This document shows positions 1 through 33,474 of a stretch of DNA of 60,060 bases, piece after piece (the first letter of the stretch is position 1; each line of letters begins with the position of its first letter). Where the stretch lies: assembly GCA_014728075.1 (NCBI GenBank), contig WJMG01000019.1, positions 1-60,060 of the forward strand, in the 5' to 3' direction. This stretch comes from Candidatus Omnitrophota bacterium. Its GTDB lineage: Bacteria; Omnitrophota; Gorgyraeia; Tantalellales; Tantalellaceae. The translations under genes were made by a program, and so were the position numbers. The notes below the pieces were generated by a model that worked only from the letters and a program-made list of their open reading frames with translations, did not search any database and was not told the DNA's origin.

Positions 1-150
1 AATACATCGGGAAGGATCCCGTCAAACCTCCAAACCTTACTTTTTAATTGTCTAATTTGTATGTAATATGATATCAACCCTGGATTATATTGTCAACTTT
101 CTTGTTTCTTACTTTTTTATGTTTAACCAACACGGACACCATCCCCCACC

Positions 151-241
151 CACCGGTACCTATCCCCACCGGTACCTATCCGGGATAGATACCGGTCCCG
201 GATGGATATCTATCCCGGATAAGTATCGGTCCCGGATAGGT
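151..241. repeat. REP-like palindromic array A
   Basis: Contains ggtacctatccgggatagatacc, ggtcccggat and tatcccggata units with the same tatcc[c/g]ggata core as arrays B and C. Unit order differs from B/C. Confidence 0.75.
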
Positions 242-457
242 AAAAGGTAAAAACCGGCAACCAATCCAATCAATAATTATCATCAAACCGTTACAATCGT
301 GGCAAAAACTAAGCTTTCGCCTAAAATCTTTATTTTAAACATCTTATACAATATATTCGGTCCCTCGATGGCCTCGTTTCAGATAACTGCACAGAAAAAA
401 CAAAAAAAGTGAAAGAATTTCCCCAAAAAAGTTGTATCTAATAATAGAGCACACTAC

Positions 458-529
458 TACCTATCCGGGATAGATACCTATCCCGGATAGGTACCGGTCC
501 CGGATGGGTATCTATCCCGGATAGGTTAA
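458..529. repeat. REP-like palindromic array B (immediately upstream of the RAYT gene)
   Basis: tacctatccgggatagatacctatcccggataggtaccggtcccggatgggtatctatcccggataggttaa. Units ctatccgggatag and ctatcccggatag are reverse complements separated by atac, giving a potential 13-bp stem. Confidence 0.8.
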
Positions 530-545
530 CTGGTAAACATAAAAA

Positions 546-552
546 AGGAGGG
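546..552 (+). promoter_or_regulatory. Shine-Dalgarno of the RAYT gene
   Basis: AGGAGGG ends 5-6 nt before ATG 558. Confidence 0.8.
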
Positions 553-557
553 AAATT

Positions 558-1229
558 ATGCCGTATAGAAAAGATGCCCTTGGAAACAATGAAATTTATC
601 ATGTTTATTCAAGGAGCATTGCCCAATTTCAAATATTTAATTCTTCTAATGATTTTAAGAGGATGATCCTATCTCTACATTTTTTTAAACATACAGACCC
701 TGGAATTAAATTCTGGCAATACTATGAATCGTTAAAATTCCATAAAATAAATACATATAACCACGATATGTTTAACGGAAAAGAACCTCTAGTCGACCTA
801 ATAGCTTTCTGCATGATGCCTACTCATATCCATTTAATACTCCGTCAGGTCACGGACAAAGGCATTTCCCGGTACATGTATATGTTGCTGAAAAGCTATA
901 CACAGTATTTCAATTTCCGTCACTCTCGCAAGGGACCGCTTTGGGAAAGCCGGTTCCGTAATGTACATGTAAAAACCGACGAGCAATTTTTACACCTTAC
1001 AAGATATATACATCTAAACCCTTGCACATCCGAGCTCGTTAAAAACCCGGAAGATTGGAACTATTCCTCCTACAAAGAATATACATCGCCCAGATCTTCT
1101 GAAAATAACGGTATCTGTGAATTTAATGGCCTTTTGGACATGTGCCCTAAAAAATACAGAACTTTTACGAACGATAGAAAAGATTATCAAAGAAAGCTAC
1201 ATCTGATCAAACATTTATGTCTGGAATGA
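558..1229 (+). CDS. rayT: Y1/HUH transposase of the IS200/IS605 superfamily, REP-associated tyrosine transposase (RAYT)-like
   Basis: 223-aa ORF preceded by AGGAGG (546..551), 6 nt before the ATG. HUH motif in MMPTHIHLIL (H-I-H = 825..833). Catalytic Tyr in LTRYIHLNP (Y = 1005..1007). GPLWESRF and PEDWNYSSY fit the RAYT/COG1943 pattern (G.lW..Rf ... Y.h.NP ... W.wSS). Bracketed by REP-like palindromic arrays. Confidence 0.85.
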   Translation: MPYRKDALGNNEIYHVYSRSIAQFQIFNSSNDFKRMILSLHFFKHTDPGIKFWQYYESLKFHKINTYNHDMFNGKEPLVDLIAFCMMPTHIHLILRQVTDKGISRYMYMLLKSYTQYFNFRHSRKGPLWESRFRNVHVKTDEQFLHLTRYIHLNPCTSELVKNPEDWNYSSYKEYTSPRSSENNGICEFNGLLDMCPKKYRTFTNDRKDYQRKLHLIKHLCLE

Positions 1230-1243
1230 ATTTACTACCTGTC

Positions 1244-1315
1244 TACCTATCCGGGATAGATACCTATCCCGGATAGGTACCGGTCCCGGACGGGCATCTA
1301 TCCCGGACAGGTTAA
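1244..1315. repeat. REP-like palindromic array C (immediately downstream of the RAYT gene)
   Basis: 69/72 nt identical to array B in the same orientation, with three T/C differences: ggaCgggCatctatcccggaCagg versus ggaTgggTatctatcccggaTagg. Confidence 0.8.
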
Positions 1316-1320
1316 TGGTG

Positions 1321-1362
1321 GAACAAGAAAAAGGCCCTGAGAACATGTTCCCAGAGCCTTTT
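1321..1362 (-). terminator. candidate intrinsic terminator of the downstream giant ORF
   Basis: Minus-strand RNA reads AAAAGGCUCUGGGAAC-AU-GUUCUCAGGGCCUUUU (16 pairs including two G.U wobbles), followed by UCUUGUU. On the plus strand the same two positions are C.A mismatches, so the hairpin is better on the minus strand. It lies ~160 nt after the stop at 1524. Confidence 0.45.
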
Positions 1363-1523
1363 CCCAAGATGCAGAAAGGTATCTTGATTTTTACCGTTCG
1401 ATAGACCACCCCCTTTTCAGTTTTTTCCTTACTTAATTTACACAAATAAAATTCCCAATAAACCCCTCAACCCCGGCCTTTAAGTAAGCGCTTACCTGTC
1501 CGCGCATTAATGCTCCCGGCCCA

Positions 1524-4500
1524 TTACGCTCTTATAAGCACTTCCGTAACATAGCGCTCGTAAGCCCTGATCTCGGCCTCGAGGTCCACCTTCTGGATCT
1601 TCGGGAAATATATGAACCAGTTCCCGGAACCCGCTACGGATATGACCTCTCCCAGTTCCGCGGGGATACTGCCCGTAGCCGCTATTTCCACCAGAGACAT
1701 GAGAAGCTGGGAAGCTATCCCCCCCTCTTTCATCTGCACGAATAGCGGCGCAGATATTTCGTCCTCCATGATGGCCTCATCCTGTTCCGTTACCACAAGA
1801 TTACCGGTATCACCTATAGCCAGGTCCTTTGCCAGCATATCCTCACCGAAAGTGCTTCTGGCCAGTTCTATAGTACGCTCCAGGGTCATGTCGTCGGGAC
1901 CCGTTATCACCACATTGGATGGTAAAATATAACCGCTGAGCCCCGTTGCTTCCATGATCTCTTCCTTATTCGCTTCTGTTATGTTCGCGTCGCGCACTCT
2001 GACCTGTATGAAACGCGAAGCCTCTTCCGCGGTGATGCCCATGCCGGCGATGGAGTTGGCTATGAACTTCAGGTCCGCCGCGCTGCCGGCCGATACGCTT
2101 ATGTATTTTCTTGCGGCTTGCTGAGGCCCTTCCGTAATATACGATTCGGCCTCAGCGGAATACACGAAATCACCTTTTACCAGGTCATACACCCTGTTCA
2201 TCCTCAATTCGTACACGCTTTTTTGGCCGAGTTTGAAGGATTCAGCGTCCGGCAGGACTTTCGCCAGCACAAAGGCTATATCCCTCAGCTCTTCCAAAGC
2301 CTCTATCTGCATTACTTTCTGATAATCCAGTGAGGCTATCTCGGGGTTAAGCAGCATTACGATATCTTTTGAGGCCCTGGCGGCAAATCCTCTGATAAGT
2401 TCCTCCGCCTCTCCGGCCCTTTCGGGAGTTATGTCAAGAAGAGCCGCTATGGCCTTCTCCCCTTCGATCCGTGAGTCGAGCTCCGCCAGCATCTGTTCCG
2501 GGCCGCCGGGGCTTACCGGGGTCAGGCGAATACCGAGTTCCCTCTCAAGTTCCTCTACGGTACCTTCTCCCAGATAAGCGTAGACCCGGTCGGGAACGCC
2601 TATCACGACCGCATAATCTCCGAACGCCTCTTCACGGGCCTTATTCTTATCTTCTATTTCACGGATAAGGATCTGCGCCTCTTCCACGACCCAGGCGCCT
2701 TTCGAGACCTCAACGCTGTCCTTTGCCGCTATCGCCCTTATCTTCTCAAGAAGAGGCAGTGCCTCCTCTTCCATAATATTTTCACGCACTATCTTCAAGA
2801 TCCTGGCTATGTTCGTGTAAGTATATTCGTTCTCTATCCCTATATACGACAGCGCAGCGACAGCTTTTTCGTAAAGCCCGAAGCCGGCGGCCGCCTTGGC
2901 ATAGGAAAGATTGGGAAAATGCCACGGAAATGTAATACCCCTGAACTTCTCGATGCCGTTAAGGAACTCGTATACTTCATCGGCAAGTTCCGTATCTTTA
3001 AGATAGCCCAGAGCTTCGTACACAAGGTACCCGCCTTCATAGATATGAGGCCCCGCAAGATACTCCGCCAGGATCTTAATATCCTCTTCCCGCACCATCT
3101 CTCTCCCCTCCGGTTCCCTTAAGGCCATCAAGAGATAATGCGCGGATATGTATTTTTCGGCTATAAGGGACCTGATCCTGATCTCTTCCTCTTCGTTATC
3201 CGCGACAGCATAAGCTTCTTCTCTTATTTCGGGGTGGAGAGCCGCCAAAAGGTCCTCCATAGCCTTCCGCCTTTCATCATTCGGAAGGACACCGTCGACC
3301 AAAGCCCTTCTAGCCGCTTCAAGTTCTTTCATCCTGGAATCCGATATGAGCGGTAAAAATTTCTCGTACATCTCTAGATATATAAAATCGGCCTCTCCCT
3401 TATAGAGCATCGCGGGAAGGGTGCGGGACTGTACTACCTTGAACTCCCCGTCGTGAGTGAGGACCCATTCTATGTCCTGAGACCAGCCCCAGAAAAGGTC
3501 CTCTATTCCTTCGGCTATGCCGGAAAGCTCCCTCACCTGGCGCGGGGTAAGCACTTCCATGTCCATAAGCTCGTCGCCTACCTCGTCGAAATCCACATCC
3601 CTCATGCGCCCGTCCACCAGTTCTTTGAGCTGCATCTGAAAAGAACGCCTCGAATCCGTTCCCTCGTATTCGTCATCGGGTATTTCCTCATCCCTTACGC
3701 TGTCCCAGAGGAACCTGGCCACATTACCTCTGCCGGAAACCGCGGCCGCTATACCCCAGCCCGCCTTGGTCTCGACCCTCGCCTTGTTGCCGGGTACCGG
3801 GTCAACCGTCAGGGTAACGCCCGACCTCAATCTCTTCTTCCCGGCCTCCTCGAGCGTTTCCACTTCGACCGCGGGGACCTGAAGTATAACCGCGGGATAG
3901 ACTTCCTCCTCGGACACACCGTGCTGCACACGGGTATTGAAAGCCGTTTCCGAATATTTGGTCGCTATGACATATTTCAATGCCGTAATTATCTTGTTAT
4001 ACGGCCCGTCCGGGTCAAAATGATCGTATTTCACCTCTTCGTAAAGGTCGTGCTTGGGAAAAGACTCGTACTGTCCCGAGGCGCTTATCATCGGAAGGTC
4101 CTCGAAATTGAAACTGGACCTAAGGAAGAACGAATAGTTGCCGTTCCTGTCCATAAGCTCGTCCGCGGCGGAAATGACCTCTTTTTTGAGGTCTTCGTTC
4201 ATTTCGGCCCGGACTATGATCTCCCTTATCCTGGCCAGCCTGGAGGACAGCTCCTCGCCGGAGACCTGTATGCTGCCGTCCTCCGCGCGTATCGGCTTCA
4301 TTCCTTCGGTACCGTCGCCGGCGAATATTTCCTCTATTTTTTCCCTGAGGCCCGCGGACTCCAGGAAGCGCTGGCAGAACTCGAAAGAAAAAGCCGCAAA
4401 ATCCGGGACCTCGTAACCGTTCTTTATAAGATGGCCCTGGTTAGCGGCTTTCGCGCCGACCCTGTTGATGTAAAGCAGATCAACCTCGTCCCCCATGAAA

Positions 4501-7500
4501 TAGAGTTCGCTTTCCGGCCCAAGGACAGGTTCGGGTATCTTTATGTCCTCTGCAGGCTTAACCGCGGGCCTGGGGGGCGGGTTCTCTATCTCGAAATTCC
4601 TGGCCCTCCTGAGGCTGGCGTTCTTGCTTGGAGTCGCCTGCAGGGTAAAAAGAGTGTTCCTCATGGCGCCGTGGCGGTAATCGAAATCCTTGAGAAGATG
4701 AACACCGTCGGGCACGACCACGAGGGGAATACCCTTTTCCCTGGAGATGTTGAGCGCGTGAAGATTCCCTTCCACACTGGTAATTATCCCCGTGGCCTTG
4801 AGAGAACCCACATTATCGGAAAATTCCGGTATGACCCAGATCAGGTCTTCGGGAAGCTTTTCCTGTTCTTCCGGGCTGAGCAGCCGCTCAAGTTCGTCCA
4901 TGTCGTCCACGACTATCACTTTGCCCACCGCCGCGGGAGCCGCGTTCTCTACTCTCCGGCTGTGAAGCCCGTATTTATTGACATATCTCTGAAAATCGCT
5001 CCTTACGGCGTCGAACATGCCTTCGAGGCCCTCCATATCATCGTTCTCCGAGAGAAAACGCGCCCCCTCGCCTTCTCCTTCGGTCATCTCTCTCAGAACA
5101 TAGCTGACCTTACCCCATATGTACATAGCCCTGAAGAACGCCTGGTCGATATCGTGTTCCCGGGTAACTTTCGCGTAAGCTTCCCTGAACCTTGCCAGCC
5201 CGTCCTTCAGCCTCTTGAAATCGGTCAGCTTCCTGCCGAACCTGCTAAGATATGCCGCCTCGGCGGAAGAGACGAGCGCCAGCATTACATCTATCTTGTC
5301 AGGGCTGAAGCTGAAGGATTCCATTATGAATTCTATCCTTTTGGCCGCCCTGGCCATCTGATCGGCTATCGCGTTCTCATTGGCCTCCAGGATCATGGCG
5401 GATATCTTCTCCATTTTTTCAGTGTGCACCGTCTGGGGATATTCTTCCCTGGGACGAGTATTCCAGTACTGATGCAGAAGGATCGCCCTTACTATCTGGT
5501 TGTAAAGGACCGGCATAACTATATCGAGCGGCATCTCCTCGAAAAAGGCCCTGGTCATGTAAACGGCCTGAGAGGTACCCTGCCTGGTCCCCGAAGACGC
5601 TACCACCCATTTCTCCTGGTCGGCGCCCAGTAGATACGGATAGCTTTCGTATCTGCTTCCCGGGACCGCTTCTATAAGGTATACCTGGAGGTCGTTGACG
5701 AACATGCGGCCCTCGGCCAGGGCCTTGCTTTTCTCCTCGGCGTCCATTTCCAGGTAATTCGTCTTTAAGAATTCGAAGAAAGTTTCGTCACCGTTCAAAG
5801 CCCCCAGCCTTTCCAGCAGCGCAGTGGTGACCGGCCTCGCCTCCCCTCCCGAGTAATCTCTGTCAACATAAAGCCCTCTTTCCGGGTCGAAGGACAGCAG
5901 GAGAAACTTCTTTTCCCCCCTGGCCCCCACGAAAACATCTTCCTGTATCCTCCTTCCGACCGCTTCTTTCCAGTAATGGCTTTCCGTGCCCAGCGAACCT
6001 ATATCCTTGGGATGACTCCCTATCCTCGCGGCTTCGCGCGAGACCTTAAGGTCTTCTTCCAGATAGTCCTCCACCAGCCAGGCCGGTCCGAGGCCGGCTT
6101 CCTCGGCGGGCACGGGCCTGTACCCCGAAGCATAGATAAAAGCCTTCTGCTCCTCCGGCTCACCTTCGGGAACATTAATGCCGGTTTCTGAATACCCGAA
6201 AAGCCAGTTCAGCGCCTCGTCAACATCTTGCCGGTCGCCCTCCAGCTCCATGGCTATCTCGGTCCCGTCTTCGGGGAGAAACCCAAAAGTGAGAAATCCC
6301 ATAGCGTTATTAACAGGGGACATCTCCTCCCCCTTCTTACCCATGGATACCTTGACCTTACCCGTTTGTATGAACTGCTTGAAAAATCCACCGGCGGGTC
6401 CAGCGTGAAAACCTCTCGTGTATTTGTTCAGCGTAAAGACCGTCTCTTCTTTCACCGGTCCGGCTTCTTCGGCGGGCGACCCGTATCCCGAGACATATAT
6501 AAGGTTTCTCTGCTGCTTCTCCAGGCCTTCCGGCATTCCGGGGATACCTTCTTCCGTATAGCTCAGAAGCCAGTTCACGGCTTCGTCGACATCCTCCCGA
6601 AGCCCCTCGAGCTCTATTTCCACCAAATCCTCGGCTTCGGGGTCCAGCCCCATGGCAAGGACATTCGTGGGGAAAGACACCCTTTGCCTCTCTTCCCCGG
6701 GCCGGCCCATAAAAAGCCTTACTTTTCCGGTCTGAACATACCTCATAAAGAACTTCTGGAGCGGCCCGACATGAAGGCCCCTGGTATACCTGTTCAACTT
6801 TACCGTGGTGGTTTCCCTGACAAGAGGCATCTCTTCACTGGAAGCGAAGATCTTCTCCTCCCCTTCCGAAAGCTCCTGGACATCCAGAATGAAGTCATTA
6901 ACATCGCGCTCTTTTCCGAGGATCCTGAACTCAGCCTTTTCACCCTTATTCATAAAAAGGTTGCTCGCCCCTTTTACGCTTACGGGGCCGCCCTCCGCCA
7001 GAAGCTCGAGAGATACGCCGTACTCTTCCATAAGCCTGATTATTCGACGGGCCGGCGCGTTGTGTATCCCGGAGGGAGCGGTTACCGTAAAAGCGAAGTT
7101 CCCCTCGTAGGGAGCCTCTTTCCCGGGAACGGCCTCTTCAGTCTCCGCGGCGCGCCTTTCGCCTCCCGCCAGGACCGATACGGCCAGTCCTATAGTGAAC
7201 AAGGCGGGCGCGAGCATACCGTGAAGCAGATACGCCCAGGCGTCGTTCACCCCAAGGCGGAGGTGCGCCCATTCGTGAGTGTAATAAAAATACTGAAGCG
7301 AAGGCGGCCTCTTTCTCATTTCGGCCTCGTTGATGTGAAGCACTCCCGCCCCGTCGACAAAGGCGATGAACCGGTCTTCATCCGTCAGGTCTTTCATCAC
7401 CATCCGGTCGTCCGAAAATTCGTCAATCAGTCCGTATTCCGCTTTCTGGGCCCCCGGCAGCAGGCTTTTGAGAAAAATATCCGCCCTGTTCACGGCCCCC

Positions 7501-10500
7501 GAATAAAGATCAATACCCTGTACGGCGTAAAGAAGGGCGGTCAGGGAGAACCATACACCCCCTAACAGGTAACGCACATCCGGACCGAGCAAAAGCATGG
7601 CCGCGCCGAGCCCCAGGAACAACCCCGAAGCGAGCATGGAGCCACCGGCGGAAACCGGTTTCTCTTCGGCCTTTTTACTCGTCTTTTCCCCGACGAGGCT
7701 GTCCATGTTCTTCGACTGGGTGAGCGTAGCGGTCTTGTCATCTCCCTTCTCACCGGCCGGCCCGATATTTATCCAGGGAGAAGCCCCCACAAGCCTTTCT
7801 CCGAAGGTGGAAGAGAGCCCTTCGATGAACTCCATGGCCTTTTTCGGACCTATAAGGTTCATATTGAACTCGTTAACTGTAAAATCTATCTCTTTTCCCG
7901 ATACCACGGGGAAATTGTTTATCCACTCAACGGTGCTTCTAAGGTACTCGTCCCTGTCGTCCTCCTTTCCGGTTATCCACGCGTGTATATCGATAAGCAC
8001 TCTTCCGGGGTCTATCCCGACCTCGGGCATCTGGAGGACCCGGAAAAGTTCGGCCGCGATGTCGGGCTCCGTAACGGTGATCCCCACTATAAGCCTTTTC
8101 TTGGCGGGAAGCGCCCTGAGCAGCCTCACCACACTGCCTATAACCTCCGCCTTGGAGTTCTTCTCGTACTTGACGGGCCACTCTATCTCGTTGACCATGA
8201 AATCCACCCGCTCATCGCTCCCGTACCGGCGGGCCACCTCAACGGCTTTATCAGTGAGTTTTTCGAGAGCTATATCGTCCTTCACGGCAAGCACCATATC
8301 AAGGGCTATGAGCTGCGCCTTCATGCCTTCGGGAAGAAGACCCATAAAAGCGTCAAGTTCCTTCATATCAAAAACATCCGGCTTGCCTATATTTACCCTG
8401 ACCGCCCCGTATCCCGCTTTCCGGTACCTCTCGAGCTCGGCCTTTATCCATTCGGCGTTGTTCGTAACGCTTCCCTTTGACATATCGAACCCAAGCCCTC
8501 CTTCTGGAGAAGGCAGGCGCAGATGCCTGACATGGGACACCTTTCCGGGTTCGGCTTCGGCGCGCGCGAGAGTGCCCGCCCCGACTATGGCAACGGGGTC
8601 GGAAGCCTCCCCGTCATAGGAAAACTGAATACCCAGCGCGTTGGTCTCCCGGAAGACGGCCCTGCGTTTTTCGGGATCCAGACCTGAAACATCGAATTTT
8701 ACCCTCACCACACCCGGAGAAGCGAGCAGAACGGAATGCGGCTGTCCATAGGCCGGTTTCCAGCCGTCGTACTTGACGAAAGGCTGCAGGACCAGGGGCT
8801 TCTCGTGGTCGGCTACATATATGCCGGGCACTTTGATATCGAAATAGATCACGGGCGTATCCGGTCCGAGGACATCGCCGGCCTCAAAGAGCACGCTCCC
8901 TTTCTGGCGCGCGGGATCCTCGACGCGGGGCAGGAACGAAGTATTCACCCTTATGGTCTCCAGATCAAGGGGTTCGGCGCTTTCAACGGCCTTTGCCCCG
9001 GGATCGCCCTTATCGGCGTAGAACCTGTACCGCGCCCCGTCGAAGAACGGCTCTCTTTCCGGCGGGTCGGTAACGCTTATCGAAACGACCTCGATATCCT
9101 CGGCGGTTTTCCTCCTGAAAAAGGCCTCGAGTCCCACTATCCTCACGCGGGAAGCGATATCTTCAGGCACGGTCCTGAGGTCGAAGGTCACCAGGGTATT
9201 TACTCCCGAGGAAGTAACATTCATGCCCGGTCCTTCTTTCGCGGTCCAGTCCGGGGCCCCGGCCTTGACATAAGGCTTAACCCATAACAGCTCGTCTTTC
9301 TTCTCGACATACCCTTCCGGGACGCGTATCTTGAACACCAGGATCTTTCCCCTCGCGTCGACGGCTTCGTCGAAGGCAAAATCAGCCCGGCCTTTCTGTC
9401 TGTTACGGTCTTCCTCAGGAGGCCTGAAATCCATATCCAGCCGGTACCCCCGGCCCTCACGCACCACTTCTTTCACGGCTTTCGCGTCCGCAGTGCCTTG
9501 ATCGGGCGAGCCCTTTAGTGCGGTTGTCCTGACCACGGCTTCCTTACGGGCCCGGCCTCCGTCAGCCGGCTCCGCCGCGCCCAGCTGACCGGTGAGGATC
9601 ATGAACATCACAACGGGAGCGGCGAGCAGAAAACGGGCCTTGAAAGGCATCACTCCGAGCGTTCCCTTTAACGCCGCCAGGGCCGGTTTAGCTTTACGGG
9701 CAATATCGCCTACAAAATACATCAGGACAAGAAGGGGAGACAACGGCCCCTGCAGCGAAAAGACCGAAAACTCGGACAAGGTCGTGTTCCTGAGTCCCGC
9801 CGAAAGAAGCGTTTTGTGGATAAGCTCGTGATTATAATAGAACCTCTGGACAAAAGCCGGGCGGCGGGCCATGGCTTCGGCGTCGACATGCATAACGCCA
9901 TCCGCGTCCACATAAGCCAGGCTTTCCCTGCCCGGGGCTATCTCTCTGGAAACTGAAGGATCGCTGAACTCCGGTATAAGCCCGGGCCCCGCCCTCACGG
10001 GAGTGACCCTGGGGAAAAGCATTCTATCAACCCGGGAGAAGATATCGTATTTCAGGTCTCCCGACTGCACAAGATACACCACGGAAGACAAAGCCGCCCA
10101 CGCGCCCGCAAGGAAATACGGCATATCCTGCCCGAAGACAAAAGCACCGACGGCGATCGCCCCAAAAAGAAGAGCCGCCGCCAATGAAGCGGAAGGCGTT
10201 ATTTTCATCTTTTTCCCGCTAAGCGAGGATATCTGTTTTCTCGCCCTTTTTATCCTGCGTCCGGCCAGTTCAAAGAACCTGAGGTTCACCCCGTTCGATA
10301 CGGCAACGCGGGCATTAGAGTTGAATATCCGCCTGAGCTCGTTTATGCTGGCCTCGTTAAGCTTGACGAGGTCTTCCGCCCTCGCGAAACGCCCTATCCC
10401 GATCTCCGACTCTATCTCCTCGAAAACACCGTTAACGGCGTCCCTCAACTCGATGACCCTGAGTTCCGCGTTATAATCCGTAACGCTCTCGTCAGCTTTT

Positions 10501-13500
10501 TCCGCTTCGGGCGGAAGCGCGGTCTTCGTGTCGTTCCCGGCGGGGACACCGTCCAGACTCAGGCTCACCCACGGCCCTACGCCCCGGCAGTTCGGGAAAT
10601 CACGGAGTATCTCACGCAGGAACTTTTCCCCGCCTCCGTACTTTACGACAAATTCGTTAACACTGAACTCTACATCGTCCGGCACGGACATCAGGTATTT
10701 TCTGCATTCCTCCAGATATATATCGGGATCCTCTTCTTTCCGTTCTCCGACATAAGCGTGCAGGTCCAGAACTACATTATTCGCTCCGATCTCGTTCACT
10801 ATACCGACCGCCAGGCCTATTTCGGTCAGGGTGAAGCCTATGTGAAGTTTCTTGCCCCGGGCGGCCTGGTCCTGGGCCAGCTCTTTCAGCATCGACACTA
10901 TCATATCTCTCGATACGGGATCCGGCTTCTCTTTTCCGGGAGCCGGCTTTCTCAGGTGGTATATACCCCCTTCTTCGCGGGATACGATGTGTTCGGGCTC
11001 GTTGACACTCCATATTATGTTCTCGTCGTCACCGTATTCGTCCAGCAGAGCCACCGCCCGCCGGCGGGTATTCTCGAGGCTGTCCTCCCCTCCCGATACC
11101 AGCACAAAATCAATGAACACTACTTCCAGCTTTACCCCCGCGCGGCGGGCTATACCCAAAAGCGCTTCGAACTCCCTTTCAAAAGCCCGTCTTCCTCCCG
11201 GGGTATCGAAATCGAGGACTTTCCCTATGTTCACTCTCACCGCATCGTACCCATGTCCGGACGCCGCGAAAGACTCGAATCTTCGCCTTACCTCCCCGAT
11301 GTTCTCTGTAACGGCACCGGGAACGAGGTCAAATCCGACCTCTTTCGTTTCAGGGGGCGCCGGCAGCCTCCAGTTCCGGGTGAACACCGCCTGCCTGACG
11401 GGGCGTTTCTTCGCGTCAGCCACATAGACTTCCTCTATCTCCACGCGTCCCGAAACCTCGTTATCCGTCTCGAACTGGGCCCCGACGATCGTTATCTGCC
11501 CTATATCCCGGGGAAGCTCCATCTCCGCCCTAAGGGTGTCCCCGGAGACGAATATGTCCTGTGAACTTTCTTCCATTGCCATAAAATAATCCGGCGCGGG
11601 TCCCTTCACGAAAAGCCGAACTCTAGCGGGCGTCGAAGCGTCCGTGAAACCTTCCGGCACAGAGAACCTGACAACGAGTTTTTCGTTCTCCTCCACAGTC
11701 AGCGGCGCCGCCAGTTCGAAGTTCACTCTGCCCCTCTGCCTGTTCGCGTCCGAGGAAGAGAAAGCCGCGTCGATCACCGCCGCTTTCTCTCTGGACTGAG
11801 AAGCTTGCCTGAAAGCGGCAACATCGAGCATATCCGGCGCGGGCCTGTCCACATATACTTCCTTTACTCCCAGGTCTTTCTTTTCCTCTTCATATCCCGG
11901 AGCCATGGCCCTGGACGCTTCCGCCGCCCGCCTGGTCATGCTCATGTGCTCCCTCCATATCCTCATGGCCTCTTCAGGATCTATCCTCCGGTCAAGGTCC
12001 GGCCTGCCTATTATCCTGGGATTGGCCAGCTCAAGGCGTCCTATCGACCTTTTCTGCGAATACCCGTTAAGCAGCAGATACCCCCCCGCTACCGCGTCGG
12101 GGTCGAAATCCTCTATAGTCGGCATGGTCTTTTCCGAGGCCATGGACAAAGTCCCCCAGTTCCCCTCCATGAAGCGTATGCTCCTGTAATCGGCTTCGTT
12201 GTGTTCGTCCAGTTCGACCTTTGTGGGGATATTGAGCCTGGCCCTGCCCCCCTGCGCGCAGATGCCCCCTTCCTCGCCCAAAAGCTTGAGTTCCAGGTAT
12301 TTCCCCTTCAGCTCATCCCGGGAAGACGGGTCCGGCAGCCTTACATCCACGGCAAAGACCTCCCTGTCCGAACGCATTCTCCTTGCTTCGGGAAACATTA
12401 TCCTGACCCCGCCCTCGGTCCTTTTGACATCGAACACGGTCCGGGGCAAAAGGTCGTAGAAAAGCGAATACCCGTTGACCACATTGGGGATCTTCTCGTT
12501 GGGAAGCACCATGTTGTTGGGGCTCACGCCGAACGGGACCATGTCTCCGTGGATGTGCCGCCAGTCAACCCCGAAAAGTTTTCGATAAAGACCTCCCGCG
12601 TCCTTTATCACTCCTTTCTTTTCGAGCGCTGAAAGAGTGTGTTCGAAGTTTATAACATAGTAGTCGAGATGCCACTGGGGGTACGCCTTCCCCGACGCCT
12701 CCAGCCGCTGCATCTCCATAAAGGCCATAAGACTGTGGAACATCTCTTCGGTTTCCCGGCTCATTCTGCCCTCGGTTTTCCTGTCCCTCTCGGCGGCGTC
12801 CTCGAAATCCTTGAGGTAACCCCTGAAATCCTTAAGAACCTCGAGAGCCCTTTCACCGTCACGATCGAGGACGGTCCTCGAAACTTCTTCCCCGGGAGCG
12901 AGCTCGTCGGATATTATCCTGTAGGCCCTTCCTGAGGGGTCCTGCTCCTCCACCATCACCCTTCTCTCGGTCTTCGTCGCTATGGCCCTTGCCATGCGGG
13001 CCCTCTGAAGAGCGTCGGGCCCCTGGTAGAGGTAAAGTATCGCCCCCGAAGGGAGTATCAGGAACACCAGGGCCACGAAACCCCGCTTCAGGTAAGGCAC
13101 TATTTTAGAATCCCAGTAATCCCCGGCCCTGGATAAGGCCCCGGTTAAAGAAGATACCACCCCCAGCCTTTCCGTTCTTATCTGAGTCTTGCCGTGCCAG
13201 GGAAGTTCCTTCACCCTGCGGGGGATCATCACGGAGAACCAGGACGGCATCCTTTCAGCCATACGGAAAAGACGAGCGCAATTCCTGACCAGGAACCTTA
13301 CCCTCGAGAGGGCGGAGCTTCCCAGCCTTGCCCGCGTCAGGGCCTGCCGGCCTCTCCACCATACCGCGCTTATCATCTTCGGAGAGAAGAACTGGTAAAT
13401 GGCCAGCACGGCCGCGAATATAAGGTGGTTGAAATACTGTATGAGAAGCGGAGATTTCATTATCCATACTATGCCGTGCCTTGATCGCCTGCCCACGGTG

Positions 13501-16500
13501 GCAATAGGCTTTCCGGTCACCCAGCTGTAAACCGTCAGTCCGAGGTCGATCGCGGAAAACACCAAAAGCGCAGCGGCGCTCTGCCACGGGATAGCGCTGG
13601 TAGCGTAGAGCAGAAGCCCCGCGGCCCCGACCGCAAGCCCGGCAAAGAACCCTACCCAGCCCAGTCTTATCTCTCCCCTGACCATACTTTTAAGCTCTTT
13701 AGCCCTTTCCACGGCCTCGTGCACGGCGCTCAGCGCCATTATCCTTTCCTCAAGCGGGTCGAGGTACTCCCTTCTTTCCGCTTTCCTTATCCATTTCCTG
13801 TCAGCCAGCTGTTTGAAATCGCCGCCTTTCAGGAACTCACGGAAAGAAGCGAAATCCTTTCCGAACTGCTTGTACTTTGCCTTTCTCCATACAGTGAAAA
13901 GGTCTTCGAGCCCCGCGAAAGAGGCGACGAAAGCCTCGCCGTCAAAGATATTTTCAAAAAGCTCCTCTTTTTTATCCTCCATTTCCGCTATGTAATCGTC
14001 AAGGACGGAGAGGACCTCTTCGTCCTCGGAATAATTGATGTTCAGCCTGTCCGCCGGGACACCCCTTCTTCTTTCCAGGACCTCCCGCATCCCGAAGAAA
14101 CTGCTGTAGTCCATGTCCTCGATACCGAGAAGGTTCCTGGCCGCTTCCCGGAGCATCTCCTCGTCCTCGAAGCTTTTCCTTACGGATGTCATCACGCCCA
14201 TGAAGGTCTGTATTACCATGGGACTTGCGAAGATCATGGCTCCTATGGCCGTGGTCACCAGCCAGCCGTTCAGCATGGGCACCGTGCCCTGAAGCTGCTG
14301 GGCGGTGTGCATGAGAAGAACCCCGATATCCCCGAGGAACGGCATGGGAACATTGGCGAAAAGCAGGATCAGAAGGTACAGGTCGGTTATCAGGAACATG
14401 GCACCCGCGGCAAGCGCCGCAAGCGTGCCTGAAGCGAGATGGGTGACGAACTGGAACCTTACATAGCCCCACAACAGGCCCACCAGTCCCGGACGGCCGG
14501 CCATGGATACTATCGGGTCCAGGTCGTGCTGCATCTGCTTCAATATTCCCGCTCTTTCAAGGGCGGGGTTGACTACGAACCTTCCGGCTATGTAGAACAG
14601 CCATCCGAAGACGAAGAACCCGGCAAAAGCCAGCAATATGCCGTTCAGGGCGAACTGCGAACTGCCGAGAGCGCCCCACACCAGGCCGAACCCGAGGTAT
14701 TGCCCGAAGAACATCATGGCCGCGGGCAGATAGCTCAGTGTGGCCGAAAAGGTCTGCATGGATATCCACCTCGCCCTCTGGAACCACCAGGGAGTCCCTA
14801 CTTCGGGCAGGGCGTCCTCGAGTATCTGGGTATATTTCCCCTCGAGCCGTGTGTTGGGTATACCGTAAAGCGCCGTCCTGCGGCCCAGCTCGGAATCCTC
14901 GATTATGTTATACAGGTCCCACACCCCGGGTATACTGTACTTGTTCAGAAAATCCCTGAAAGCCGAAGCGGGCTTGAAAACGGAAGGTTGTCCGCTGAAC
15001 ATCAGGGTGATCCTCTTCAGCACCGCCCGGTACCAGGGCATCCTTCCTATCTCTTCCCTTACGGCGGCCCTTTCCACATCTATCTTCTCTTTCAGCGGGA
15101 ACTGGAGCATCTGGTGGTGCATCCTCCTGGAAAGCGGGAGCGCTCCCACAACGAAATTCCTGTCCCCGTCCATTATAGCTCTCGAGCCGGCAAGCCTTTC
15201 CCACCTGAAGTTGTTACCCGTTCCGCCCAGGAAAAGGAATCCGAACTTGGTCTGTCCGGGCTGTATGGTGGAATGCCACAAAAGATAATCCATGTGTGAT
15301 TTTTCGCTCAGCAGCGGATCACCTGTCGGCACCAGCCTCAGCTCCGACTGTATGACGAAAGGCGTATGGCGTTCCCTGAACTCGGATTCTATAAAATGTC
15401 TTCTCGGGTCATCGACCCTGGTGACATGTTCGGACTCGAAAAGGAACGATTGCGAAAGCGCCCAGGCCTTGAAAAGCCCCCGTTCTCTCTCGATGTCGGA
15501 ATTCTTCCAGGATAGTACCAGGTTGATATCCACGGCGTCGCCCATGAGAATGCCGTTTATGTCGGAATCACTGAGCCCGTACCGCCTTTGTATGCCGGCT
15601 AGCCTGCGCCTGTACTCCTCCTCAACGGCTCCGAGGGCGCTTTTGTCTATATCGTACGACCAGGTCTTCACGAAGGACCATAGCTGGTATTTGACCCTGT
15701 CCTCCGCGTTGCCGGAGACCAGCAGCGAAAGCGCTTCCTCGAAATCTTTTTCCATTAGGGCGTCGAACTCCCCGGCCGTCGTGGTCCCGGACTTTTTCCT
15801 GAGAGACGAGAGGACATTGTCGAATTCTCTTCCCAGAAGACCCTCTTCGCGGCTGAAATCTATACCCCACCTGTCGACATCTTCCTGGTCTATACTTCCG
15901 GGCGCTTCCGGGGTACCGGCCTGTTCTTTCATCACCCGCTCCCTCATACCCCACACGCATATCTTTGAGCTCAGGTTCAGCATGCCGAGACGGTCCTCCT
16001 GGTCCACCAGCTCCACCGAATACGGCGGTTCGAGATCTTTTTCCGCGTAATACCTTTTGGCCATGGCTATACAGGCCGAGTTCATAGGCGGTTTCATGCG
16101 GACCTTTCTCGGGTTCTTGGCGAAATTGATCCCCCATTCCGGGAAGGTGAAAACATGTATGTTGTTCCTGAGATGGTAAAGTTCCCCCATCTCCTCCGGA
16201 CCCCGGTCAACTCCTTCTTCGTTTCCGTAAACGGCCCTGTAGCAGGACCCTATGCCGCCGGCGTCGTCGTTGTCCAGCGCGAGTATATAATCGATCTCCC
16301 CCGGCCAGGAAGCGTTGGCGCTCTTTATGGTCTGCTTGATGTTATCGCCCGCGTCGGAGCTGAAAACGGTGTCCATTACGGCCAGCTTGTGAAAAAGCGG
16401 TACCGGCTCTACTCCTTTCTGCACGCGTCCCGCGAGTTCGGATATCTCCTCCTCGGTATACATCCACTGCCCCTCGCCAAGCTGTATGTCAAAAACCCTG

Positions 16501-19500
16501 CGGGCCCTTGAAAGATCACCGGCCGTGGCTTCCTCCAAGAGATCGGCGTTCCTCTTGAAGATCGTCAGGAATCTTTCCCTGGCGAGCAGCCGCCTTATGG
16601 CGTCGAGGTCCATTTGTGAGATTATATCGGAATTATCTATAAGCCCTTGCGCATCCAGCACGGAGGGGTCTTCTATCGAATCCATGAACTCGTCGTCCAT
16701 GCGAAGCACATCCACCAGGTCTTGCCTTCTCGCGTTGTTGATGAGGTAGAGTATCAGATGCGAGTGCGTGTCCATCCTCAGGCGATAAACGGCCCATTTT
16801 TCTATCGGTTGTTTTCTAAGCAGGTGCAGCCAACCTCTTATCCCGGAGTACTCCATAGACACCTTTCTCCAGACCTCTTTGGCGTTCCCGCTGGTGATGA
16901 TATTGTTTCTCATCGCCGCGGGGGTGTACCGGGTGCCGTTCTCGGCGTCTTCCGCCATCATGGACGCTTTCACCTCGTTAAGCATACCGGAAAGCGTCTG
17001 TTCGGGTATGTACCTGAGTATGTCGCGGTCGGTCACCATTTCGCCTCCGCCGAAAAAGAAGCGCCTTATTCCGGATATTCCGGGGACCCAGCTGAACAAA
17101 CCCAGGGTTTTTCTTATGATCCTTCCCGGCAGGCCGCCGGCTATCCTTTCGCTGCCCGTAAAATGCCCGGCCGCGAAAAACGCGACCTTGATCAGCATGT
17201 TCACCATCGTATAAGCGAATATTATCGAAACACCCATCGTCATGGCAGTGATGGGTATAGTGTATGCGGGCGCGTCCGACAGGCCGAACGAACCGACCAT
17301 GAAAATACGGATACCCATGGCGATCCACGGGGAAGATATGAACAGCGGGGCCATTATCAATATCACCGGGACCAGCCGTTTCAGGGATTCGACCATGCTG
17401 GTGCTTGCCGGGCCTACTCCGCCGAAACCCTTGATCCCCATCACATTTCCGGTCTCCTGGGCTATCCTGTTCTTGTCCTCCTCGTCGGCCACCACGGCAA
17501 GCTCTTCACCGTATTCTCCCGTACGCCCGAGCTTGGTTATGTTGTTCATCCGGCTCAGTATCTCGGGCACGAAAAGAGGGATGGCCGTCATCGGCACCGT
17601 CTGCCAGCTCATCCCCCTGTACTTCAATAGCCCGTTATGGGCCTCATCCTCTCCGAGTGCCCGGTAAGGCCCGTCCCTTGAGTACCATGCCTCGCGGGCA
17701 TCTTCCCGGCCTTTCGGCACGGGCATCAGACCGTAGAAGGTATCCTGCCCGTCGCTGCTGCGGCGCACCTGGTCAAAAGCCGGCCCGCGCATCCAGAAGG
17801 TAGGTTGCTGCGCCCTGAGAGGTGAAATGCCGTAATGGGCTTCGGAATGCATCGTAAAACCACTGTTCCTGGCGCTGTCGGCCATGAAATCCATCCACAT
17901 TATACTGTAATCGGCGTAATCCAGTATGTTCATCGGCATGGTCCTTACCTGCAGGGCGTCGCCCGCGTCCCCGAAAGGAGCCTGCACGGTGACCGAAAGT
18001 ATCTTCCTTTTTTCTTCGTCAGTGAGGTCAGTTCCGTCGAGAGCCTCCAGAACTTCCGCCCTGAACTCCTCCAGGGCTTTCTTCATGTCGAGAACGACCT
18101 GCCGCTGCCTCACTCTCTGCAAAGCGCGGTCCAGGTTGGGGATCCTGCCGGCGGAAAGCAGTCTGGGGAGATAACTCACCAGGTCCAGCGCCACATAAAT
18201 GTTACGGCTGAGGTCAAGCCACGCCCTTTTTTTCCTGTTCTCCCAGAGCGTAATGTCCGCACGGAGATCCGCGAGTTCCTCTTCCGCCTCTACTACGCTT
18301 TTCTCCAGGCGGTCCGCCTCTTCCGGGTCCGCTTCCTTCACCGCAAGGGCTTCCCTCTTTTTCCGCCCGATATCTGACTCAAGCGCTTTCGCCCGCGCCC
18401 GTAAGCGCGAGGGCTGGCCAGAGATATAAACGATCGCCGCCTTGGCGATGAGGTAGAGCCCTCCCAGCGGCACGAGCCCAAGGGCCATCAACACGGCCGC
18501 CAGCATATGCACCTGGAAACCCCAGGGAAAAGCGGTAGCCATCAACAGTGCTCCCGAAATAAAGAACACCGCGCCGAGCTTATTGTAAGGCACTCTCACC
18601 GGAAACTTATTTCCCTTCTCGCCGTACCTGCCTTCTTCTTCGTTCCATACGACCCCGTACGGGTTGAGCTTGATATGGGCATCCTCGTATTTCCGCGTCA
18701 GATCGGACCCGGCCTCCGACAACGCCTGCCTTACTGAGACGATGTCCTCGAGCTTGGCCCCGTCGACCCCGGGCCTTACGACGGGCCTTAAAACCTTTCT
18801 TTCGGCCTCTTCCCCGGCTTCTTCGGCGGATTCTTCCACGGCCTCTTCCTCGCCGGCAGTAAGACCCGCGGACGCTTCTCCGGCACCTTCCGAAGGCCTT
18901 CCGCCTTCAGGCCTGCCGCCTGCATCCCGGCGGCTTTGACGGGCCTTATCCCCGGAGATCAGCCTCCTTGCTCCGCCCAGGAGCTTACCGGCAAGGCTGA
19001 CAGCCAGAAGTCCAGCGAGAGTGATCCCGAACACCCAGCCGAAACTGACAGCGTACCTTATGGCTTTTCCCCTGAAAAGCCTCGCGCCTACCTGGTCCAT
19101 TGCCTCCTTCAGGGTCAGACGCCCTTCCATGAGGTCCGCCGTTACCTGCATGCGCACCCTTACATCCACTTCTCCGAGATCGTACCTCGTTGAATCGGAA
19201 GCTATATCTCCCACCAGCTTGAGAAAAAGAAGCCTTTCCGCCGCAGGCGACATCCGCGCTTCCGGGTCCTCCTCGACGAGAGCGAGCTTCTCGTTGGTCA
19301 GGTTGGCTTCGAAAAAATCCCTCAGCAGACCTTCCTGTGTTTCCGAGGCTATCATGCGCATCTTGGGCAGGACATCGGCGCCGTATGTCTCAGCGAGATA
19401 AATGAGCTGTCCCAGCGAAGCGTTCCCGTTCTGATCGGAAACATCGAAGAACTCCCGGGCATCGACGGCTTCCTCCGCCCCTGTCCGGTTATACATCTCC

Positions 19501-33188: not shown

Positions 33189-33192
33189 GATA

Positions 33193-33199
33193 CCTTCCT
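33193..33199 (-). promoter_or_regulatory. Shine-Dalgarno-like element of the downstream giant ORF
   Basis: The minus strand reads gcAGGAAGGtatcATG. Spacing is short (4 nt from the last G). Confidence 0.55.
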
Positions 33200-33248
33200 G
33201 CTTTTCCGCAAATAAGCATGCTTTCTTTTATCCTAACTAATCAACTAT

Positions 33249-33278
33249 AGTATATCATATAAATGGCAGGGACAACAA
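33249..33278 (-). promoter_or_regulatory. candidate sigma70-like promoter (extended -10) for the downstream giant ORF
   Basis: The minus strand reads TTGTTG - 18 nt - TATACT, with TG one nt upstream of the -10 (TGATATACT). It lies in the AT-rich spacer ~60 nt upstream of the ATG. This is pattern only; the consensus for this organism is unknown. Confidence 0.25.
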
Positions 33279-33474
33279 ATAATATCTTAAACTTTTTTAA
33301 ACTTTAACAAAAGTGTTTATTTTGTTATATTATTAATAATACTTCCTTATTTTTCGCCTATCGTCCAAATAGGCTGTATTTCGAAGGACCGGGATATATT
33401 TTTGCTTTTAATTCTTTACTTATAAGTACTTACAAAAACAACCAAACTCCGGGGCCTTCTTCGGGCTTCACCGG

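Follow-up and report, generated by a model that had tools for sequence, protein, structure and literature searches.

Giant proteins of the Omnitrophota ("Archaeovorin"-type; West-Roberts et al. 2023, bioRxiv 10.1101/2023.11.21.568195) are encoded by very long open reading frames (ORFs) with many transmembrane (TM) segments. In that preprint they are described as containing glycosyl hydrolase and peptidase domains and many unannotated stretches which were resolved only by structure prediction, with SecA_DEAD as a typical domain. Most of the sequence of these proteins lacks annotation, and few recognisable domains underlie the role proposed for them in attacking the prey wall. Here we analysed a window (meaning the whole stretch of 60,060 nucleotides (nt), positions 1 to 60,060 of contig WJMG01000019.1, assembly GCA_014728075.1) from a Candidatus Omnitrophota bacterium. 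It contains two very long minus-strand ORFs, which we call G1 and G2, and G1 encodes two colinear cassettes, each with one or two beta-sandwiches, a (beta/alpha)8 barrel, a TM hairpin and a membrane-proximal HExxH minidomain. With slightly more than even confidence, we read these cassettes as two tethered, outward-facing, retaining-type glycanase heads, each carrying a minimal zinc site and both functional since an old duplication.

G1 resembles the published giant proteins in being a very long multi-TM ORF, and the divergent SecA_DEAD domain of G2 is a second likeness to what the preprint describes. At 10,554 amino acids (aa), G1 lies below the 30,000-aa class of that study (bioRxiv 10.1101/2023.11.21.568195), and its backbone family is distinct in having conserved N- and C-terminal parts and HPr and phosphoenolpyruvate (PEP)-utilising domains. 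Text searches of bioRxiv 10.1101/2023.11.21.568195 and of a 2026 preprint gave mentions of glycosyl hydrolase domains in or beside giant genes, and no mention of this barrel family, of HExxH modules or of a PEP/HPr backbone. Literature searches likewise gave no paper dealing with phosphocarrier or GH5-type domains in giant proteins of the Omnitrophota.

The described enzymes closest to the G1 barrels are glycoside hydrolases (GHs) of clan GH-A (GH5: 6gvb, 7lr7, endoglucanases and CcsZ 6uje; GH10: 1us2), which share the barrel fold, the Asn-Glu of strand 4 and the Glu of strand 7, and have the Arg, His-x-Tyr and Trp landmarks in common with G1. The Asn before the strand-4 Glu, the Arg of strand 2, the His-x-Tyr of strand 6 and the Trp of strand 8 constitute the residue set of GH5 and clan GH-A, and GH5 also has a conserved His at the end of strand 3. 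Many modular glycanases carry a beta-sandwich ahead of the barrel, as G1 does. Unlike the clan GH-A enzymes, the G1 barrels are covalently tethered to a TM hairpin within a 10,554-aa protein. For the HExxH minidomain, the closest described proteins are the minigluzincins, which were reportedly proposed by Lopez-Pelegrin et al. in 2013 as models for the catalytic cores of the M48 and M56 membrane metallopeptidases. Minigluzincins are minimal soluble zincins with a third His as zinc ligand (PMC6925264; PMC4559962).

Two colinear cassettes in one giant ORF

The cassette region 7150..11738 corresponds to G1 aa 7151-8680 and is entirely coding on the minus strand. The features of G1 and its cassettes, in coding order, are:

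1524..33188, minus strand: G1, uninterrupted ORF of 10,554 aa which encloses both cassettes
11403..11750, minus strand: cassette 1 beta-sandwich, aa 7147-7262 (AlphaFold2 and alignments)
10521..11387, minus strand: cassette 1 (beta/alpha)8 barrel, aa 7268-7556 (AlphaFold2, Foldseek and residue conservation), with other landmarks Arg7318 on strand 2, His7477-x-Tyr on strand 6 and Trp7540 on strand 8
10998..11003, minus strand: Asn7396-Glu7397, end of strand 4 of barrel 1
10653..10655, minus strand: Glu7512, in strand 7 of barrel 1
10209..10520, minus strand: helical linker or stalk from barrel 1 to the membrane, aa 7557-7660 (long helix, model residues 420-449)
10068..10208, minus strand: cassette 1 TM hairpin, aa 7661-7707 (AlphaFold2 helices 2-21 and 25-50 of the module model; hydropathy)
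9771..10067, minus strand: cassette 1 juxtamembrane HExxH minidomain, aa 7708-7806, with HELIH at 9816..9830
9570..9770, minus strand: cassette 1 TM3 and TM4, aa 7807-7827 and 7843-7873 (AlphaFold2 and hydropathy)
9054..9410, minus strand: cassette 2 first beta-sandwich, aa 7927-8045 (28% identity to the cassette 1 sandwich, E = 5e-5)
8589..8918, minus strand: cassette 2 second beta-sandwich, aa 8091-8200 (lies, in colinear order, within the 28% alignment to cassette 1)
7689..8546, minus strand: cassette 2 barrel, aa 8215-8500 (alignment to cassette 1)
8187..8192 and 7869..7871, minus strand: Asn8333-Glu8334 and Glu8440, candidate catalytic residues of barrel 2
7512..7655, minus strand: cassette 2 TM hairpin, aa 8512-8559 (BLASTP and hydropathy)
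7242..7511, minus strand: cassette 2 HExxH minidomain, aa 8560-8649, with HEWAH at 7263..7277
7158..7241, minus strand: cassette 2 single TM helix after HExxH, aa 8650-8677 (hydropathy)

Cassette 1 (aa 7147-7873; 9590..11738) and cassette 2 (aa 7927-8677; 7150..9395) matched each other by BLASTP in three colinear parts: the barrel (28% identity over 363 columns, E = 4e-26), the TM-hairpin/HExxH part (31% over 181 columns, E = 3e-18) and the beta-sandwich (26%, E = 5e-4). Neither blastn nor a DNA repeat search gave any nucleotide-level similarity between the cassettes, which indicates that the duplication is old; the only DNA repeat within 7150..11738 was one 21-nt chance pair. An old, diverged, en-bloc segmental duplication had been proposed in a first-pass annotation of this DNA made from the sequence alone, and our alignments bear this out. 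The same annotation had placed the motifs correctly: NEPE at 10992..11003 (aa 7396-7399), NEIE at 8181..8192 (aa 8333-8336), V-N-E at 10651..10659 (aa 7510-7512) and N-E-F at 7866..7874 (aa 8439-8441). The HExxH motifs are at aa 7787 in copy 1 and aa 8638 in copy 2.

The two copies differ in layout. The helical linker (aa 7557-7660) falls in an alignment gap and has no counterpart in cassette 2, cassette 1 closes with two TM helices after HExxH and cassette 2 with one, and the one sandwich of cassette 1 is matched in cassette 2 by two segments (aa 7927-8045 and 8091-8200), each of which aligns to it. Among all known relatives the best partner of copy 2 was copy 1 (101 bits for the barrel and 70 bits for the module), while the copy 1 barrel was nearer to barrels of other organisms (235 and 219 bits) than to copy 2. 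This pattern is consistent with one en-bloc duplication long ago, after which copy 2 diverged faster. No further copies of the cassette were found in G1 or G2; the other internal duplications in G1 are in aa 3282-3864 and in two HPr-like domains with 46% identity.

We modelled the sandwich and barrel of cassette 1 with AlphaFold2 using five sequences, obtaining a mean predicted local distance difference test (pLDDT) score of 76.6, with most barrel blocks at 80-96 and eight alternating strand/helix units. In model numbering, strand 4 (252-257) ends at N257 with E258 directly after it, and strand 7 (369-375) includes E373. Strand 2 has V-R-V-N, strand 6 has D-L-H-A-Y and strand 8 ends in P-W. 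The candidate catalytic Glu residues therefore lie on strands 4 and 7 in the model of cassette 1, as the first-pass annotation had expected.

These residues are also the conserved ones. Across six barrels sharing 25-48% identity, the Arg, the N-E-x-E, the D-x-H, the strand-7 Glu and the strand-8 Trp were invariant, with the strand-4 Asn-Glu present in 6/6 sequences and the strand-7 Glu in all five which reach that position. The alignment of the six also has an invariant Asp at the end of strand 3. Barrel 2 retains all of the landmark residues with two changes, Tyr to Trp (D-I-H-A-W) and NEIE for NEPE. The retention of every candidate catalytic residue in the two copies makes it probable that both are active.

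The sandwich of cassette 1 was modelled with 6-7 strands and also aligned to two relatives of G1 (P0001 and L003, see below). The first-pass annotation had described three CBM-like segments, two of them in the second cassette. The duplicated sandwich in cassette 2 was confirmed by alignment, and a beta-sandwich is predicted, but its pLDDT was only 38-73, no CBM or other Pfam profile matched it and NCBIfam gave nothing significant, which counts against our reading of the cassette; the "CBM-like" label is a guess.

We propose that each cassette would act as a membrane-tethered unit shown on the extracytoplasmic side of the cell membrane, with one or two beta-sandwich domains followed by a clan GH-A ("4/7")-like retaining glycosidase barrel. 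The strand-4 Asn-Glu would provide the acid/base and the strand-7 Glu the nucleophile, supported by the Arg of strand 2, the His-x-Tyr/Trp of strand 6 and the Trp of strand 8. The TM hairpin would then bring the chain back to the same side, where a juxtamembrane HExxH domain of ~90 residues would follow. Such a unit would most likely cleave or transglycosylate a beta-linked glycan near the membrane, with the cell's own envelope glycan, an exported polysaccharide or a prey envelope as possible substrates. The published predation hypothesis favours the prey; if the Omnitrophota are diderm, an inner-membrane tether would instead favour a periplasmic substrate and make prey hard to reach. An active barrel would establish a new family of glycoside hydrolases, and would offer a concrete, excisable 290-residue target for finding the glycan which it acts on.

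Orientation of the heads and the membrane HExxH module

Counting TM helices from the N-terminus of G1 was tried as a way to fix the topology and was dropped because hydrophobic blocks of 35-56 residues make the number of spans ambiguous. The topology proposed here rests on a short count back from the C-terminal domains which serve as a cytoplasmic-side marker:

3420..7121, minus strand: a triplet of HPr-like domains (aa 8690-9010), a weakly matching PEP-utiliser mobile domain and PPDK_N (aa 9575-9923)

In Pfam the PPDK_N ATP-grasp domain had E = 3e-33, while PTS-HPr matched at E = 0.011 and 0.054 and PEP-utilizers at E = 0.062. Such domains are expected in the cytoplasm, which holds the PEP and ATP that they need. 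There is one hydrophobic span after the HExxH of cassette 2 (aa 8650-8677) and none from there to the C-terminus of G1, which would place this HExxH on the extracytoplasmic side and, across the hairpin, barrel 2 as well. The elements of cassette 1, traced across TM4 and TM3, would likewise be extracytoplasmic, and the loop that joins TM3 to TM4 in cassette 1, rich in Lys/Arg, is in keeping with outward-facing heads. We conclude that the heads are probably extracytoplasmic, tethered glycanases. As a separate observation, the C-terminal third of G1 (1527..7121, minus strand; aa 8690-10554) is made up of this phosphotransfer-like array plus a conserved C-terminal domain, and the same array comes after the HExxH module in several Omnitrophota proteins.

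The charge in front of the hairpin weighs against this orientation. The segment just before TM1 of cassette 1 has six Lys/Arg and no Asp/Glu in 15 residues, and strong positive charge at this place is found in most copies of the module, which by the positive-inside rule argues for a cytoplasmic head. In that case the module would be an inward-facing metalloprotease like HtpX or BlaR1/MecR1, and the barrel would act on a cytoplasmic sugar or have a regulatory or binding role. TM-embedded HExxH peptidases of M48 and M56 do face the cytoplasm (PMC6925264), and one homologue fragment (P0009) begins just before the module with a Lys/Arg-rich N-terminus. However, P0009 is a truncated copy of a 2,953-aa protein (P0012), so that its "N-terminus" is internal. 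With only one TM helix after the second HExxH, cytoplasmic heads would also mean that the HPr-like and ATP-grasp domains lie outside the cell, together with the Lys/Arg-rich TM3-TM4 loop of cassette 1, and we regard this arrangement as improbable, if the best placed of the alternatives to outward-facing glycanase heads.

Turning to the module which anchors these probably outward-facing heads, we aligned 12 copies with ~23-38% identity to G1 copy 1, in which the H, E and H of the motif and a Q were invariant. The order in the alignment is TM hairpin, amphipathic helix, "RAGP-x-LI-x-x-F" and then the HExxH-bearing stretch "AYV-x-dG-x-l-h-V-n-x-x-E-M-x-x-R-P-x-x-v-Q-x-F-Y-Y-x-H-E-x-x-H". A column 10-18 residues past HExxH, at the start of the next TM helix, is occupied by Glu in nine copies, Asp in two and His in one, as expected for a metal ligand, and is the putative third one. 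The AlphaFold2 model of the module (pLDDT 83.1, pTM 0.75) begins with two TM helices and an amphipathic helix; two short strands then lead to the HExxH helix, and a long TM helix plus a further TM helix come last. Its strand-strand-helix(HExxH)-helix part is at pLDDT ~90, and H123, E124 and H127 (module model numbering) sit in helix 114-132.

We compared the module with known metallopeptidases by structure and by profile. Foldseek of the TM/HExxH model against the PDB returned noise only (best E = 5.6); the TM helices probably dominate the comparison. With a profile of the non-TM part, the only family found among all PDB sequences was MJ1213 (projannalysin), at a borderline E = 0.046; this alignment spans the strands and HELLHLK, and the full-module profile gave a weaker match. 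None of the 12 copies matched Peptidase_M48 or M56 in Pfam at E ≤ 10, there was no other Pfam peptidase match, and NCBIfam gave nothing significant for the HExxH modules. The missing fold match and the borderline profile score count against a zincin, a reading which is plausible but not established. Of the membrane-proximal zincin-like site proposed in the first-pass annotation, the invariant HExxH and the borderline minigluzincin match are in favour, and a fold match is what is missing. The minidomain probably binds zinc as a minimal zincin.

The module shares with the minigluzincins (projannalysin MJ1213, PDB 4QHF-4QHJ, and proabylysin) a small domain in which short strands lead into the HExxH helix, a further ligand-type residue on the next helix and, in several copies, HE-x-LHLK. 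It differs in that their third ligand is His (PMC6925264) and that of the module would mostly be Glu or Asp, and in that they are soluble, while the HExxH domain here lies between a TM hairpin and TM helices and is probably outward-facing. Its membrane association resembles that of M48 and M56 (PMC6925264), but a match to either family profile is absent.

The module is present in 1-3 copies per protein across the family, which makes it a candidate for the anchoring or processing of such proteins. A more far-reaching idea, to which we give little credence, is that it is a novel type of outward-facing, membrane-embedded minimal zincin acting in cis, which would cut the giant polyprotein where it meets the membrane and release or activate the glycosidase-like head preceding it. 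If this were true, the giant proteins of the Omnitrophota would be polyproteins with repeated built-in processing stations, and there might be a coupling between the stations and the cytoplasmic HPr/PEP-utilising phosphotransfer domains which follow the module in several members.

Affinities of the barrel

Foldseek of the cassette 1 model against the PDB gave 309 matches at E ≤ 1e-3. Classified by reading the entry descriptions, the top 50 comprised 21 GH5, 15 GH10, 3 other glycosidases and 11 ketose 3-epimerases. The first-ranked match was 1us2, a CBM15-GH10 xylanase (E = 1.8e-10), with 513 columns aligned at a root mean square deviation of 18 Å. The best query coverage was found for the mannosidase-type structures 6gvb and 7lr7 (GH5_18; TMq 0.46-0.48). 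Foldseek probability was 1.00 for GH5 and GH10 structures, and identity within the Foldseek alignments was 9-16%.

Several results weigh against placing the barrel among the glycoside hydrolases. No significant family match was found in Pfam, using the whole protein and pieces of it, or in NCBIfam; phmmer and hmmsearch with the barrels and their profiles against all PDB sequences gave no relevant match; and no GH family was among the profile matches in an exhaustive HMMER search of 1.84 billion representative proteins. The best GH-type profile score was one insignificant Cellulase-like match (E = 0.16), and PF00150 (Cellulase) itself gave no match even at E ≤ 10. In comparison with GH5, the G1 barrel has no PF00150 match, and it has an invariant Asp at the end of strand 3 where GH5 has His. 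The epimerase matches in the top 50 also have E-values no worse than those of GH5.

With 11 of the 50 best fold matches being of epimerase type, Foldseek alone does not settle the superfamily of the barrel. It could be a metal-dependent sugar isomerase or epimerase-type TIM barrel (xylose-isomerase-like), with the Glu of strand 4, the Glu after strand 5, the His of strand 6 and the Glu of strand 7 as metal site. D-psicose, D-tagatose, D-allulose and L-ribulose 3-epimerases account for the 11 matches, including ranks 2 and 3 at E ~4e-7, and strands 4, 5, 6 and 7 do each have an acidic or His residue at their end, which for strand 5 is Glu in 5/6 sequences. Query coverage by the epimerases was nevertheless lower (TMq 0.34-0.40 vs up to 0.48 for GH5), the Glu after strand 5 is Ser in one relative (P0006), and no Pfam AP_endonuc_2 match was found. 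The invariant Asn, Arg, His-x-Tyr and Trp are those of the GH5/clan GH-A set, and an extracytoplasmic, sandwich-linked and tethered setting is unlike the workplace of sugar-phosphate and ketose epimerases. An epimerase-type barrel is accordingly an explanation we think quite unlikely.

Our reading is that the barrel resembles clan GH-A in its fold and in the layout of its active site, and that it lies outside every catalogued family. As no sequence profile recognises it, it is called clan-GH-A-like by its fold and residue placement. Of the first-pass claim that these are clan GH-A-like barrels, the fold, the placement of the Glu residues and the GH5/GH10 majority in Foldseek held up, while a profile link to any GH family did not appear; judged on the model, the earlier interpretation was largely right at the fold level. 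That the barrels and HExxH sites are instead catalytically dead scaffolds, glycan-binding or structural, within a giant surface protein is a doubtful proposition, since the candidate catalytic residues are all invariant despite divergence to 25-30% identity, as is expected of active sites under selection, even if family relatives of known activity are not detectable and giant proteins contain many structural repeats.

Two stretches which are invisible to profiles have in this way been resolved into a predicted clan-GH-A-like barrel and a conserved membrane HExxH module. On the evidence of profile searches and alignments, these are two new, very rare domain families and not members of known ones.

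Relatives of G1 and the rest of the window

The HMMER search found only 11 related proteins. The barrel is carried by three of these (P0001, P0002 and P0006), none of which is a known glycosidase, and the other eight have the module without the barrel, with 1-3 copies per protein; three copies are found in a 3,091-aa protein from an Omnitrophota metagenome-assembled genome (MAG) (P0003 = L001). Nothing was found in a word-indexed search for homologues, either with cassette 2 on its own or with the 5-sequence barrel alignment as query. A metagenome scan added one more barrel (L003/L004, 37% identity), which stands in a giant ORF encoding at least 6,375 aa. This ORF occupies nt 2162..21287 of the 266-kb contig Ga0180432_10000011 and has one sandwich-barrel head. 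Behind this head come a TM hairpin and, where the HExxH module would stand, a "VHEGVEDRCGSH" segment, perhaps a degenerate or alternative form of the module.

Origins were looked up for ten relatives: eight came from Candidatus Omnitrophota MAGs, one was a TARA ocean metagenome fragment and one was labelled Woesearchaeota. L001 and L002 are Omnitrophota MAG contigs. The protein from the MAG labelled Candidatus Woesearchaeota (P0006, MBI4739648.1) has a barrel and then many YD/RHS-like repeats; its label could be a binning error or reflect transfer between an Omnitrophota predator and an archaeon.

NCBI names the homologues "HPr family phosphocarrier protein" or "PEP/pyruvate-binding". Both ends of G1 (aa 42-815 and aa 10172-10554) are conserved in Omnitrophota MAG proteins of 2,953-7,255 aa, and these ends plus the module are kept in P0012 (2,953 aa; 49% and 32% identity), P0003 and P0005. 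The N-terminal domain, aa 42-815, has 37-49% identity in these three proteins and is also found in the giant ORF of L003; no Pfam family was found for it. In G1 this domain (30744..33065, minus strand) comes after a signal-peptide-like segment. As the termini and the module are conserved in much shorter proteins, G1 is an expanded member of a backbone family in which the module is core and the sandwich-barrel heads are accessory inserts in a few members. By the same evidence the TM-HExxH part is an independent conserved module and a core element of this family. What the first-pass annotation had observed in the region is confirmed; the giant-protein context and the independence of the module were absent from it.

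Other features of G1 lie outside the cassettes. A third HExxH (NHELGH, aa 964-968; 30285..30299, minus strand) is by hidden Markov model unrelated to the TM/HExxH module. A lipoprotein-signal-like segment stands mid-ORF (aa 1982-2008; 27165..27245, minus strand), with RR, a hydrophobic core and an L-S-G-C lipobox. The duplicated region aa 3282-3864 (21600..23345, minus strand) consists of tandem protein repeats of ~120 residues each, with 27-37% identity and E down to 9e-31, and is within the long stretch between the lipobox-like segment and the first TM block. We also considered whether aa 5600-6230 might be a processive glycosyltransferase family 2 (GT2) glycan synthase, in which case the barrels would be its BcsZ/CcsZ-like partners. 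The idea came from "IIEDSELGRR ... (38 aa) ... FQRARW" at aa 6098-6141 (14766..14897, minus strand), directly before a multi-TM block, where the spacing resembles that of the BcsA-type TED/QxxRW motifs of processive GT2 synthases. No GT2 relationship was found for aa 5600-6230 by Pfam, NCBIfam, phmmer against the PDB, tblastn against plasmids or BLASTP against E. coli BcsA, and it is kept only as an unverified lead.

Other genes in the window are:

33475..60045, minus strand: G2, 8,856 aa, directly upstream of G1
558..1229, plus strand: IS200-like Y1 transposase gene, 223 aa (Pfam Y1_Tnp, E = 2.6e-6), just downstream of G1

G1 and G2 are separated by a 286-nt AT-rich spacer (33189..33474). Besides the divergent SecA_DEAD domain (E = 3.9e-16), G2 has Pkinase (E = 3.9e-22), FHA, many TPRs and a weak Rce1-like/CPBP match. 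Plus-strand ORFs inside the cassette region (e.g. 6228..7565 and 7597..8619) were taken to be shadow ORFs of the G1 frame, since the minus-strand ORF is uninterrupted and its product has homologues. GC skew was below 0 along the full window, and Rfam and tRNA scans of the window were empty. Three copies of an internally palindromic repeat of ~70-90 nt flank the transposase gene (155-263, 457-548 and 1243-1334), forming with it a REP/RAYT-like arrangement at 1..1523, where GC content falls to 0.43.

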